Assembly (NCBI GenBank): GCA_963826535.1
Contig: CAWGXL010000010.1
Location: 170,814-234,813, forward strand
Length of the DNA: 64,000 nt
DNA from: an uncultured bacterium
Lineage (GTDB): Bacteria; Patescibacteriota; Microgenomatia; Levybacterales; UBA12049
Direction: 5' to 3'
Of the stretch, positions 5,327 through 51,272 are shown in pieces. Each line of letters starts with the position of its first letter. The first letter of the stretch is position 1. Both the position numbers and the translations under genes were made by a program. The notes beneath the pieces were generated by a model. The model made no database searches, had not been told where the DNA came from, and saw nothing but the letters and a program-made list of their open reading frames with translations.

Positions 5327-6948
5327 AACAGAAAAACACTAATCCATTAAAATCCAAAAAAAATAGCAAAATTAATGCGAATCACGAAAGTTTTTTACAA
5401 AAAATTTCGAGGCAAAAATTCCTCATAGGTATTTTGGTAATTCTTTTTATAGCTACTATTCTTCGGTTTTATGATTACCCAACTCGTTGGGGAATAGGAG
5501 ACGACAGTAGCCGGGATATTGCGATAGCAAGAGAAGCTTTAGCTCGTCATGAGCTACCTCTGATTGGTTCATTTAGTTCTGCTGGTCCTTTTGTCTTCGG
5601 TCCACTTTTCTATTGGGTTCTCATGGCGAGTTATATCATACTTCCTTTTTGGTTTACTGCTCCGGTAATAGTAACTGTTTTGACTAGTATCCTAACAGTT
5701 GGCGTGTTGACAGCAGGCGGTTATTTAATTGGCGGTAAAAGATTGGCAATACTTGTGGGTGTACTTGCCACTACCGCTCCTCAGATGGTCGCCCGTTCCG
5801 TCGCTATTGGTCAGCATTCATATGTAGCTATTTCGACTGCGTCACTTTTCCTCTTTTTTATTCTCTATTGGAAAAGACGAAATCCAGTGTATGCCTTTTT
5901 GATGGGATTGGCGTTGGGAGCGGCACTAAGTTTCCATTATCAGACAATTAATCTTTTAATTTTTTTTGCTGCAATTCTCTTTATTCCAAAAGTAAACCTA
6001 GTACATAGAATTGGTGGCTTGCTCAGTATGGGTGTAGGTTTTCTTATCCCTTCACTTCCTCTTATCATTTGGGATAGCCAACAGCAATGGGCAAATTTGC
6101 GAAATATTCTTGATTATTTATTGATAGCACAATATCGTTTGTATGTCCCAAACAGCTGGAGGCTTTTCCTTTTCAATTACTTGCCTTCATATTGGTCATT
6201 TGTTGTCAGCGGTTATGCTGCCAGTGCTTTATTCGTCATGACAGTGACGTTTATTGTGGTTTGTGTATCTGCTATCAGGAGAAAAATTTCAGGTATTATG
6301 GTGGCGTTTAGTATAATCTTTGCTATTTTACTGTTCGTTAACAAATTTTATAAAGGAGAACGTTCAGAAGGCTACCTTATTTATTTATCACCGTTTATTA
6401 TTCTTTTTACAGCATGGAGTATTGAGAAGCTCTTTCAAGTATCAGGAAAAAGAATATATTTAAGATTAGGTCAGCTTATCGGTATAATAGTTCTTCTCAT
6501 TATCCTTACGGGAAATTTTTTGCAAATCAAACATTACGAAAATAGTAAAAACATAAAACATGAACTTGATACAACAATTAGTTTTCTTATAAAAAAATAT
6601 CCAGACACAAAATTTGTAATATATGATTATCGAAATAGGGCAGGAGCGGTGAGTCAGCCATTGGGTCTTTTTTTGAAATTGCAAGACAAAACAGATTCTC
6701 AGGGAATGCCAATCGGTTTTACCTGTTCCGGTGGGGATTGTCCACAGAAGCTCCCTGTAATAGCTACGCTTGCCGGCCGGCCTATTATTGATATGAGTAG
6801 CGTAATAAATAGAGATAATAAGTCGAGTAATTGGGTGAAAGTGAATCAGGAAAATATGTATGATGACCTTATTGGTTGGTCAAAGAGGCATGAGCTGAAA
6901 TCCACCTTTTCGATTCAAAATTACCTCATGGAAAGACTTAGATTATAA
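5323..6948 (+). CDS. GT-C membrane glycosyltransferase (ArnT/PMT_2-like)
   Basis: ATGA overlap with the upstream gene. 541 aa, polytopic. It has the DDxxRD-type first-loop motif typical of ArnT/PMT-like enzymes. Confidence 0.6.
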   Translation: MKQKNTNPLKSKKNSKINANHESFLQKISRQKFLIGILVILFIATILRFYDYPTRWGIGDDSSRDIAIAREALARHELPLIGSFSSAGPFVFGPLFYWVLMASYIILPFWFTAPVIVTVLTSILTVGVLTAGGYLIGGKRLAILVGVLATTAPQMVARSVAIGQHSYVAISTASLFLFFILYWKRRNPVYAFLMGLALGAALSFHYQTINLLIFFAAILFIPKVNLVHRIGGLLSMGVGFLIPSLPLIIWDSQQQWANLRNILDYLLIAQYRLYVPNSWRLFLFNYLPSYWSFVVSGYAASALFVMTVTFIVVCVSAIRRKISGIMVAFSIIFAILLFVNKFYKGERSEGYLIYLSPFIILFTAWSIEKLFQVSGKRIYLRLGQLIGIIVLLIILTGNFLQIKHYENSKNIKHELDTTISFLIKKYPDTKFVIYDYRNRAGAVSQPLGLFLKLQDKTDSQGMPIGFTCSGGDCPQKLPVIATLAGRPIIDMSSVINRDNKSSNWVKVNQENMYDDLIGWSKRHELKSTFSIQNYLMERLRL

Positions 6949-48470: not shown

Positions 48471-49418
48471 ATGATAAGCATAGTAGTACCCGTACTAAAC
48501 GAAGAAGAAAGCCTGGAGCCATTTTATCAAGAGCTCCACAAAATTATACTCGAACTCAAAGTTGATTACGAAATCATCTTTATTGACGACGGATCAACTG
48601 ACAATTCATTGGAAATACTAAAAAAGTTATTCAAAGTCAATGACAAAATAAGGATATTTTCCTTCAGGAGAAATTTAGGAAAATCCGAAGCTCTCAGCTT
48701 AGGTTTTATAAAAGCCAAAGGAGATTTTATTATCACCCTCGATGCAGATCTACAAGATAAACCCTCGGAAATACCCAAGCTTCTGCGCATTGCTAAAGAT
48801 GGAATTGATGTGGTATCCGGATGGAGAAAAAACAGAAAAGACAAATCCCGCATGTTGATTATTTCCCGTTTATTTAATTTTTTAATGGGAATGCTATTCA
48901 ATCTTCATCTACATGATTATAATTGCGGAATAAAGTTATATACCAGAGATGCTGCCAAAAGCCTGCGTCTGTACGGAGGGCTTCACCGTTTTATTCCTCT
49001 TCTGGCTTACGAACAAGGATTTACCGTAGATGAAGTGATAGTTGAACATGCGTCAAGAAAGTATGGCAAATCAAAGTATAATTTTTCCAAACTCTGGAAA
49101 GACGTACCCGATATGTTTACAATGCTGTTTCTTGTAAAATATGGCAAACGCCCTTTACATTTTTTTGGTATTGTTGGAGGAGTATTAACACTAATCGGAT
49201 TTATTGTACTAGGTTACTTAGCTGTCCTTCGCTTTTCAGGAGAAACGATTGGTAATCGGCCTCTACTATTTTTTGGTATGTTACTTCTACTTGCCGGATT
49301 CCAAATATTTTTTACAGGATTCCTTGCAGATCTGATGATTAACATTTCTCATAATCCAAAATTTCTCAATGAAGAGAACCCTCATTATCCTATTAAATAC
49401 GCCAGCGAAAAATTATGA
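48471..49418 (+). CDS. polyprenol-phosphate sugar synthase with C-terminal TM helices (ArnC/GtrB-like GT2)
   Basis: ISIVVPVLNEEESL..FIDDGSTDNS..TLDADLQD, plus two C-terminal TM helices as in GtrB/ArnC. Confidence 0.8.
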   Translation: MISIVVPVLNEEESLEPFYQELHKIILELKVDYEIIFIDDGSTDNSLEILKKLFKVNDKIRIFSFRRNLGKSEALSLGFIKAKGDFIITLDADLQDKPSEIPKLLRIAKDGIDVVSGWRKNRKDKSRMLIISRLFNFLMGMLFNLHLHDYNCGIKLYTRDAAKSLRLYGGLHRFIPLLAYEQGFTVDEVIVEHASRKYGKSKYNFSKLWKDVPDMFTMLFLVKYGKRPLHFFGIVGGVLTLIGFIVLGYLAVLRFSGETIGNRPLLFFGMLLLLAGFQIFFTGFLADLMINISHNPKFLNEENPHYPIKYASEKL

Positions 49419-49993
49419 TTATCGGAATTGATATTTCCCAAATGGCTTATGAGAATACTGGAGTGGCAAACTATTTAGAAAGTCTAATAAAAAGTTTATT
49501 TGCAAAAGATGATAAAAATGAATATATATTATTTTTCTCATCTTTAAGACGAACTATTCATTTTTCATCTGATTTAATAGGGACTCAATCAAATCACAAA
49601 GTTTCGATTAAGCAATTTAAAATCCCTCCATTTTTTTTAGATATCCTTTGGAACAAACTTCACATTTTCCCTATAGAATGGTTCATTGGTAATGTAGACA
49701 TATTTATTTCCTCAGACTGGACAGAGCCGCCTACAAGGAAAGCAAAAAAAGTTACAATATTATATGATTTTATTATATTTAAACACCCGGAAGAAACGCA
49801 TAATATAACAGAGTTTAAAGTAAAAAAGTTAATTCTTTCACCAAATATTGTGGCTATTCAGAAAAGAAAATTACTTTGGATGAAAAAGGAATGCAAACTT
49901 ATCATTTGTATTTCAGAGTCTACAAAGCGGGATGCAATAGAGATGCTAGGTATTGAAGAAAAACGGTTGAAAGTAATTTATCCCGGAGTTTAA
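49415..49993 (+). CDS. truncated GT4 paralog (N-terminal Rossmann domain only)
   Basis: MIIGIDISQMAYENTGVANY... ends at KVIYPGV*. This corresponds to the first ~165 aa of the next gene (MIIGIDGNEANVTNKVGISEF ... VVYPGIKP). Confidence 0.55.
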   Translation: MIIGIDISQMAYENTGVANYLESLIKSLFAKDDKNEYILFFSSLRRTIHFSSDLIGTQSNHKVSIKQFKIPPFFLDILWNKLHIFPIEWFIGNVDIFISSDWTEPPTRKAKKVTILYDFIIFKHPEETHNITEFKVKKLILSPNIVAIQKRKLLWMKKECKLIICISESTKRDAIEMLGIEEKRLKVIYPGV

Positions 49994-49997
49994 TTCT

Positions 49998-51179
49998 ATG
50001 ATTATAGGTATTGATGGAAATGAGGCAAATGTAACAAATAAAGTAGGCATAAGCGAATTTGCTTTCCAACTTCTTTTGCAATTTTCAAATCTAAAAAGCT
50101 CAAAATTTAATATATACTTAAAAAGTAAACCAAAAGATGACTTGCCTAAGCCGGACAATAATTGGCAATATAGAACTGTAACTCCCGGAAAACTCTGGAC
50201 TCAATGGCGACTGCCGCTGGATTTATATTTACATCAGCCGAGGCCAAATGTTTTTTTCAGCCCGACACATTATGCCCCTAGATTCTCTCCTGTCCCCACA
50301 GTTATTTCCATTATGGATTTGTCTTATCTTTATTTCCCTAAAATGTTTAAAAAATCTGATTTATATCAACTTCGAAGTTGGACATCCTACTCCGCAAAAA
50401 AGGCACAAAGAGTCTTAACCATAAGCAACTCAAGCAAGTTTGCTATAATCAAAGAATATAAAATACCTGAGGATAAGGTGATAGTCGTTTACCCGGGTAT
50501 CAAGCCTGCCCGCCTGCCTGCCGGTCAGGCAGGTCCGGCAGGCGGGCCAACTGTTTACCGGGAGCCGAAGGTTTTATCTATGAATACAGTAAAAGCGAAA
50601 TACGGTATAAGTGATAAATTTATTCTCTTTGTAGGTACATTACAGCCGAGGAAAAACATTGTCAGATTAATAGAAGCGTTCGCAAAAGTCTTATCCCAGG
50701 AAAAAATACCTAAAAATCTTCAATTGTTAATTGTCGGCAAAAAAGGTTGGTTATACGAAGAAATATTGAGAAAGCCAAAAGAATTAGGTATTGAGGAAAA
50801 AGTAAAATTTCTTGACTTTGTCTCCGATGACGAATTAGCAGTTCTCTACAATAATGCTTTATGTTTCATTCTCCCGAGCCTATATGAAGGTTTTGGGCTT
50901 CCGGTATTAGAAGCTATGAAGCACGGATGTCCGGTTATCACAAGTAATGTATCAAGTCTTCCCGAAGCTGGCGGTGACGCTGCAATTTACATAGACCCGG
51001 AAGATATAAATGATCTTACAGAAAAAATCCTAAAACTTATAACCAATGAAAAATTACGCCAGGAATTAATCGAAAAAGGTAAGAAGCAGGCAGCGAAGTT
51101 TAGTTGGGAGAAAACAGCCACGGAAACTTTAAAAGTATTAGAAGAGGTTGGTTCCTTGTCTTCCCGACCGAAGCGATAG
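49998..51179 (+). CDS. GT4 family glycosyltransferase with GC-rich in-frame insertion in the interdomain linker
   Basis: EGFGLPVLEAMKHGCPVI motif. The inserted segment PARLPAGQAGPAGGP is encoded by a ~45-bp, ~80% GC palindrome. Confidence 0.8.
   Translation: MIIGIDGNEANVTNKVGISEFAFQLLLQFSNLKSSKFNIYLKSKPKDDLPKPDNNWQYRTVTPGKLWTQWRLPLDLYLHQPRPNVFFSPTHYAPRFSPVPTVISIMDLSYLYFPKMFKKSDLYQLRSWTSYSAKKAQRVLTISNSSKFAIIKEYKIPEDKVIVVYPGIKPARLPAGQAGPAGGPTVYREPKVLSMNTVKAKYGISDKFILFVGTLQPRKNIVRLIEAFAKVLSQEKIPKNLQLLIVGKKGWLYEEILRKPKELGIEEKVKFLDFVSDDELAVLYNNALCFILPSLYEGFGLPVLEAMKHGCPVITSNVSSLPEAGGDAAIYIDPEDINDLTEKILKLITNEKLRQELIEKGKKQAAKFSWEKTATETLKVLEEVGSLSSRPKR
50504..50548 (+). repeat. GC-rich imperfect palindrome (CCTGCC x3 / GGCAGG x3) embedded in frame in a coding sequence
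   Basis: GCCTGCCCGCCTGCCTGCCGGTCAGGCAGGTCCGGCAGGCGGGCC. The outer 11-bp arms GCCCGCCTGCC and GGCAGGCGGGC are perfectly complementary. Confidence 0.6.
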
Positions 51180-51185
51180 CGTAGT

Positions 51186-51233
51186 GGAGGAATCTCACAC
51201 CACAAAGTAGCTTAGGTGGTATGAGATTCCTCG
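51186..51233 (+). other. 15/16-bp stem hairpin immediately downstream of the GT4 stop (terminator-like or structured RNA element)
   Basis: GGAGGAATCTCACACC - 16-nt loop - GGTATGAGATTCCTC. It starts 7 nt after the TAG at 51177-51179. There is no adjacent U-tract. Confidence 0.4.
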
Positions 51234-51272
51234 ACTCCCTTTCAGTCGCTCGGAATGACAAATATTTAATTT

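Follow-up and report, generated by a model that had tools for sequence, protein, structure and literature searches.

A 42-nucleotide GC-rich palindrome inserted in frame in a GT4 glycosyltransferase gene belongs to a dispersed family of 21-nucleotide hairpin repeats

A GC-rich, hairpin-forming palindrome of 42 nucleotides (nt) lies in the gene for a GT4-family glycosyltransferase in a 64-kb window (the whole stretch of DNA that was analyzed). It is an insertion that keeps the reading frame, and its sequence belongs to a family of 21-nt repeats found in coding and noncoding DNA alike. Most probably, the insert is one of many scattered copies of a tiny palindromic repeat that is selfish, resembles the REP and RPE repeats, and survives in genes by being frame neutral. 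This family of frame-neutral hairpin repeats is widespread and apparently undescribed in the literature searched. Here, we report the insert, its relatives, and the alternatives to this reading.

A preliminary description had claimed a GC-rich palindrome at 50504-50548, coding for 15 amino acids in frame, against a background of ~31% GC. The segment (GCCTGCCCGCCTGCCTGCCGGTCAGGCAGGTCCGGCAGGCGGGCC) is indeed 82% GC, and its perfectly complementary 11-mers, GCCCGCCTGCC (50509-50519) and GGCAGGCGGGC (50537-50547), were confirmed; the window as a whole was measured at 34% GC, which corrects the background figure. The insert itself (42 nt, >80% GC) (Table 1) encodes 14 amino acids, PARLPAGQAGPAGG, equal to GT4 residues 170-183, so that the frame was described correctly and the length was not. 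Its boundary is ambiguous by 1-2 nt because CC is present at both ends. The palindrome is the top-scoring inverted repeat of the window and the only place within it where GC content exceeds 70% over 40 nt, and TRF reported a (GCCT)x4.8 periodicity and a 9-nt period there. The RNA fold prediction proposed earlier gave -44.3 kcal/mol (z -3.65) for 50490-50565, and the 42-mer as DNA folded at -17.3 kcal/mol (z -4.15). The element is present once in the window (n = 1); its inner 18-mer had no second match there at ≤3 mismatches (shuffles expect 0).

Table 1. Positions of the GT4 gene and of the parts of its insert in the 64-kb window
Feature	Coordinates	Strand	Basis
GT4-family (GT-B fold) glycosyltransferase, 393 aa, intact	49998..51179	+	PF13439, PF00534, orthologues, synteny, AlphaFold
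Nested dimer of two 21-nt hairpin units	50505..50546	.	Missing in 31 orthologues; exact copies at L170/L207 and L180
Outer unit, 5' part CCTGCCCG	50505..50512	.	Rejoined with 50534-50546 gives CCTGCCCGTCCGGCAGGCGGG
Inner 21-nt unit, variant CCTGCCTGCCGGTCAGGCAGG	50513..50533	.	8-bp stem, loop GGTCA
Outer unit, 3' part TCCGGCAGGCGGG	50534..50546	.	Rejoins with 5' part

Pfam domain positions bear out the location in the interdomain linker that had been proposed from the sequence, with the insert placed between PF13439 (aa 75-172) and PF00534 Glycos_transf_1 (aa 205-364). GT4 was aligned with 31 orthologues (65-76% identity, mostly 368-385 aa long). In 31/31 of them, PARLPAGQAGPAGG faces a 14-column gap in an otherwise uninterrupted alignment, and every invariant column of the family is kept in the window's protein. 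At the site, the orthologues read GIK-PTIHP, GIK-PAAYP, or GIK-PTVYP (codons AAA CCT ACA, AAA CCG GCT, AAG CCG TCA, or AAA CCA ACT). The window DNA reads AAG [CCT GCC ... GGC GGG] CCA ACT, and the empty sites in L001-L003 and L006 read AAR CCN|ACN. The alignment thus identifies the segment as an insertion, as the preliminary description had suspected, and no orthologue carries the same segment in AT-rich codons. We infer the exact boundaries of the insert and the timing of its insertion from these sequences. The locus is syntenic with L001, L003, and L004, with a shared gene order of GT2, an open reading frame (ORF) for a GT4 N-terminal half, GT4, a hexapeptide transferase, and a large membrane protein. 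AlphaFold, supplied with the orthologue alignment, returned a confident GT-B model (pLDDT 84.4, pTM 0.81) whose only internal stretch of low pLDDT is residues 173-190, that is, most of the insert and the residues just after it. A direct repeat, GTTTACC(C)GGG (50487-50497 and 50553-50562), was considered as a target duplication and dismissed, since it does not abut the insert and represents ancestral VYPG...VYP coding sequence that is also found in the uninterrupted orthologue L006.

An assembly or sequencing artefact at the insert position is very improbable. In its favour, hairpins rich in GC are prone to errors, contig L009/L044 ends within such an element, and two 20-nt versions break phage genes (see below). 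Against it, the orthologous codons run on exactly in both flanks, the insert length is divisible by three, and family members lie within contigs from many projects and assemblers. We know of no adapter sequence that the insert matches.

Cataloguing clusters of shared hexamers gave a canonical unit, U, of 21 nt (CCCGCCTGCCGGACGGGCAGG; reverse complement CCTGCCCGTCCGGCAGGCGGG), which pairs CCTGCC with GGCAGG in a 6-bp stem, has a 5-nt loop, and leaves a 4-nt tail (CCCG) unpaired. Its length equals 7 codons, none of its six frames holds a stop codon, and as DNA it folds at -6.7 kcal/mol, with a hairpin that folds better than shuffles. The window's insert is built of two such units in a nested layout, CCTGCCCG plus CCTGCCTGCCGGTCAGGCAGG plus TCCGGCAGGCGGG, in which the outer unit is split after its 8th base; joined as CCTGCCCG^TCCGGCAGGCGGG, the outer parts reproduce the reverse complement of U exactly. 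The inner unit folds as DNA at -8.6 kcal/mol (z -3.9). In this layout, one reverse-complement unit is interrupted by a second, variant unit, which gives the 42 nt.

Across all retrieved loci, at least 167 distinct contexts hold a sequence within 3 substitutions of U, and in 73 the match is exact. The distinct variants have 70% of their substitutions in the 5-nt loop; this stem-versus-loop statistic and the host range given below are biased because the retrieval patterns contained parts of U. The variant unit CCTGCCTGCCGGTCAGGCAGG stands alone in 11 phage-contig stretches (about 6 contexts) and has 12 contexts overall. A second dimer type has U nested in its own reverse complement; L099 (a Yanofskybacteria metagenome-assembled genome [MAG]), L103 (a Giovannonibacteria MAG), and three metagenome contigs share it without a difference over 44 nt.

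A search for further copies, which the preliminary description had recommended for the rest of the genome and for related genomes, found them in unrelated ones. A scan of species-representative genomes and viral collections with the outer-arm pattern became informative after filtering on locus GC content: among the matches listed, it mostly gave ordinary hairpins in genomes of 60-75% GC, and about ten matches listed from low-GC genomes shared far more than the pattern demanded. A more specific signature, run against JGI metagenomes, gave 84 loci. The window's insert is copied exactly over 43-44 nt, between unrelated flanks, in L170/L207 (54-56% GC, within a 324-aa frame) and in L180. Same-length variants occur in L224 (HATPase domain of a histidine kinase), L167 (Gfo/Idh/MocA-type oxidoreductase), the L222 group, L227, and several high-GC contexts. 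Labelled hosts, among the matches listed, are Patescibacteria (3 further lineages), Omnitrophota, Bacillota, Bacteroidota, Bdellovibrionales, Acidobacteriota, and Dehalococcoidia; contexts of the unit span 32-75% GC, and the phage contigs that carry it 39-69% GC. Of the earlier suggestion that the insert is the scar of a foreign element, the foreign origin stands, given identical copies in unrelated genomes; it is not the scar of something larger, being the element itself.

These copies bear on a local de novo origin, in which slippage of a GCCY tetranucleotide was followed by inverted duplication or a template switch. The (GCCT)x4.8 and 9-nt periods fit such a history, as does the gain and loss of units at one site in homologous Acidobacteriota-type loci. 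It is nevertheless the least probable reading considered here and effectively refuted: the orthologous sites hold nothing GC-rich from which the insert could have grown, and separate origins cannot explain an exact match of 43-44 nt with unrelated loci.

Two of the retrieved groups show further variation. L027, L210, and L201 share one-side flanks with L170 and L207 (Acidobacteriota-type context) and hold different, expanded element versions at the same site, including additional CCCGCCTGCCGGA units, which suggests local gain and loss of units. Contig L009/L044 ends (position 1-62) within the element, there in tandem or nested form, consistent with repeats breaking assemblies.

In low-GC contexts, 53/81 copies (65%) lie inside long ORFs; random windows drawn from these loci gave 68%, so the unit neither avoids coding sequence nor favours it. 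Placement follows coding density, in both orientations and in 5/6 frames, which means that the DNA is conserved and not the peptide. Target-site duplication was not seen at the GT4 site, at a leucyl-tRNA synthetase (LeuRS) site, or at 18 prophage sites. Imperfect direct repeats of 13-15 nt, AT-rich, tandem, and heptamer-like, border the element in L226, L180, and L157; they may have been there before it or may be a duplication.

The most heavily colonized sequence is a single prophage of Defluviitaleaceae, L238, which unites L044 and L183 and spans genes for tape measure, terminase, portal, head morphogenesis, and baseplate proteins. It carries 18 copies in 17.1 kb, 16/18 inside called genes and 13/18 exact 21-mers, in both orientations and in 5/6 of the possible frames; two assemblies of the prophage agree at 100% and may derive from the same reads. 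Further copies lie on at least 5 contigs of the Defluviitaleaceae MAG. In these termite-gut contigs, A at -1 and T at +1 flank 10/18 sites (P of about 5e-7), whatever the codon phase or orientation; this A|T junction preference is missing at the copies in the window, LeuRS, L170, L180, L224, and L167. Two 20-nt versions, each with one loop base missing (L238 4692-4711 and 6225-6244), coincide with a large terminase split into two ORFs and with a premature end of the portal ORF. They are either real frameshifts in a decaying prophage or sequence errors induced by the hairpin. In a comparison of the portal protein at 29% identity, too divergent for a call of 7 aa, the 20-nt copy coincides with the frame break.

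The prophage also bears on the possibility that the insert is foreign GC-rich filler: DNA from a high-GC donor that patched a double-strand break and has no dedicated means of moving. We regard this as unlikely. The same 21-mers do occur in ORFs of phage contigs of 58-69% GC, where they are compositionally unremarkable, and no target duplication was seen at the sites compared. Random filler, however, would differ in length and end points, whereas independent insertions in many genes have identical, exact boundaries (21 or 42 nt); moreover, units insert into units, one prophage holds 18 near-identical copies, and the junction preference is significant.

Insertions of the unit were also resolved in other proteins. 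In L099 (JACOZX010000013.1, Yanofskybacteria), a 42-nt dimer at 6428-6469 lies within LeuRS, an essential gene in a streamlined genome. Compared with Thermus thermophilus LeuRS, the protein is longer by exactly 14 aa, placed between the Cys and the Gly of HCSKC-G-YQPVPE, directly after the cysteine of a CxxC motif (peptide ...CARLPARPAGGPDGQG...). A solo unit in an AAA_15/OLD-type ATPase of Defluviitaleaceae is a clean 7-aa insertion facing a 7-column gap in 13 homologues, and the same ATPase has a second insertion of 5-7 residues. In L226 (NPIE01006886.1), the second dimer type (5919-5960) sits in a GT4 paralogue with 32% identity to the window's GT4, at the equivalent interdomain linker and between imperfect direct repeats TTTTCAATTTTAAA and ATTTTCAATTTTCAAA. 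Boundaries are less crisp for copies in variable or linker regions of a ParB-like protein and of an Omnitrophota valyl-tRNA synthetase (ValRS), the latter at the junction before the C-terminal coiled coil.

That two different GT4s were struck at the same linker could suggest a benefit to the host, with a flexible linker altering domain movement in GT4 or an mRNA hairpin pacing translation or affecting stability. The insert does sit exactly in the GT-B interdomain linker, a related dimer occupies this linker in a distant GT4 (L226), and the RNA hairpin is strong (-44 kcal/mol). We nevertheless consider a host-beneficial role quite unlikely. The insert is present in 0/31 orthologues, the same DNA occurs in unrelated proteins in 5/6 frames and both orientations, and noncoding copies occur in proportion to noncoding abundance; recurrence at linkers is expected simply since insertions survive there. 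Selection that filters insertions to loops and linkers would account for the two GT4s. No Rfam family matched at the insert, where the best overlap in a local search at a permissive threshold scored 12.5 bits against a 100-bit cut-off. A terminator scan gave no terminator-like site at the insert, whose hairpin lies within an ORF and has no T run. There is no evidence of host benefit; the insert is missing in all orthologues and stands outside any RNA family or terminator context. A flexible linker acquired by insertion, one of the earlier suggestions, holds as a consequence (the segment is missing in 31 orthologues and has low pLDDT), with no sign of selection for that role; a regulatory mRNA structure, another, finds no support, given the lack of conservation in orthologues, the empty Rfam result, and the context. 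Over the whole 64-kb window, Rfam returned nothing at gathering score, tRNA included.

Under the preferred reading, that of a small selfish repeat, the unit would spread as selfish DNA and would persist in genes through insertions that are each frame neutral and stop-free. Each event would add 7 codons for a Pro/Ala/Gly/Arg-rich loop, presumably tolerated at surface loops and linkers, and the GT4 copy would be a passenger that adds a disordered loop of 14 residues to the interdomain linker. How the unit moves is a matter for speculation: a single-stranded hairpin might be moved by a trans-acting enzyme of HUH/Y1 type, by analogy with REPs and their RAYTs and with IS200/IS605, a proposal we hold as doubtful. 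It is prompted by four features: each unit combines a tail with a hairpin, no duplicated targets are seen, units insert into one another, and one phage favours A|T at its junctions. It is weakened by a screen of 1668 ORFs in 439 kb of low-GC loci, the window included, in which an IS200 TnpA-type probe (an approximate query sequence) had 0 matches.

A broader reading sees in the units a class of selfish DNA not described before, compatible with coding and spread across phyla, with a self-nesting, ORF-colonizing, trans-mobilized hairpin unit of 21 nt. This is tentative, though we take it seriously; the hosts concerned would include essential LeuRS and ValRS genes in streamlined Patescibacteria and structural genes of phages.

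Several known repeat systems are comparable. REPs are G+C-rich stem-loops of 20-40 nt with a 4-nt unpaired end, tagged GTAG or CGTC, and some are intragenic and translated (Di Nocera et al. 2013, PMC3733652); REPINs and RAYTs (Bertels & Rainey 2011, PMC3116915) are considered together with them here. Like REPs (PMC3733652), the unit is a short G+C-rich stem-loop with an unpaired 4-nt end, is multi-copy at least in the Defluviitaleaceae prophage and MAG, commonly forms dimers, and has no dedicated gene inside. Unlike REPs, it has an unpaired end that reads CCCG/CGGG, neither GTAG nor CGTC (CGTC appears only in the loop of one strand), and its stem is all G/C, whereas the stems of CGTC REPs begin with A/T (PMC3733652). 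Its copies are not preferentially extragenic, its dimers are nested where those of REPs are head to head, and its sequence is identical across phyla and from 32 to 75% GC. A RAYT link was not found in the 439 kb of low-GC loci with the approximate probe. RPEs, as summarized elsewhere (PMC10969869), are palindromic selfish DNA inserted in frame in unrelated genes, translated, and compatible with function, and the same type of in-frame insertion was seen for the unit in GT4, LeuRS, and the ATPase. RPEs are about 100-150 bp long and confined to Rickettsia and relatives (PMC10969869), whereas the unit is 21 or 42 nt long and occurs in many phyla and in phages, with none of its labelled hosts in Rickettsiales. 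Unlike a MITE, the unit has no target-site duplication at the tested sites, and no parent element was seen.

Cyanobacterial SDRs, reportedly described by Elhai et al. in 2008, are said to be 21-27 nt long, to look mobile, and to insert into each other and into short tandem repeats. In texts that cite this work, SDRs are reported from Nostocaceae only (PMC3116915, PMC5861425). By these descriptions, the unit is similar: its copies are nested, and those in L226, L180, and L157 lie within AT-rich heptamer-like repeats. Cyanobacterial SDRs may be the nearest analogue. The GC clusters of yeast mitochondria are short GC-rich palindromes in AT-rich genomes. Other mitochondrial GC-rich hairpin elements are reported from sponges (repetitive hairpin-forming elements, PMC2800124) and from Fusarium (palindromic repeats, PMC7218506). 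Such elements resemble the unit as short GC-rich palindromes reported to invade AT-rich genomes, coding regions too; unlike the unit, they are organellar, and their sequences appear unrelated. A text search of the literature with the unit's 11- to 21-mers found the 17-21-mers in no paper and otherwise gave unrelated eukaryotic matches, and a topical search found no such family described in Patescibacteria within the searchable literature.

Short palindromic repeats are usually viewed as intergenic and as belonging to a single lineage; the 21-nt unit is indifferent to coding sequence, lies inside essential genes, and is identical in sequence from Patescibacteria of 34% GC to phages of about 70% GC. 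If truly mobile, it would be among the smallest mobile units and would set a lower bound on the size of mobile DNA, would account for odd Pro/Ala/Gly/Arg-rich insertions of 7 or 14 residues in metagenomic proteins, and would make the mobilizing enzyme a tractable question (copy number against gene content across genomes). If the coding-compatible reading is true, the unit would be a general source of loop insertions in proteins. Inserts of this kind can mislead orthologue alignment, structure prediction, and gene calling, and the 20-nt versions coincide with split genes.

Further repeats and a partial gene were noted around GT4 and in its orthologues. Directly upstream of the full gene, a 192-aa ORF (49415-49993) encodes the GT4 N-terminal domain alone and ends …VIYPGV*, the same motif at which the full gene holds the insertion. 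A half-gene of 173-179 aa occupies the same position in L001, L003, and L004, so the arrangement is conserved and is not a fresh pseudogene.

A separate, long hairpin of ~108 nt (51156-51261; RNA fold -48.4 kcal/mol, z -5.5) overlaps the 3' end of GT4 and supplies its last codons and stop (…SLSSRPKR*); the C-terminal end of orthologue P0004 also reads …GSLSS. Its termini are TTGTCTTCCCGACCGA and TTGTCATTCCGAGCGA, a motif found nowhere else in the window, and its arms look like an inverted pair of REPs with TGTC heads (CGTC-family-like).

The orthologues in L002 (~430-480), L003, L004, L005, and L006 have a variable N-terminal loop opposite residues ~33-34 of the window's protein. It is encoded by AT-rich heptamer-like repeats, TCAAAAT/TCAAAGT, that translate as 'SKFK…SKF' and in which small GC-rich hairpins are embedded, with a different sequence in each orthologue (CCGGCAGGCGGG, TCCGCCAGCCGGCGGA, and GGCGGGCAGGC). 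The loop insert of L006, TGTC-ATTCCCGC-AAAG-GCGGGAAT-CCA, fits the definition of a CGTC-1 REP, and L005 carries two other hairpins at the linker equivalent to the window's insert site.
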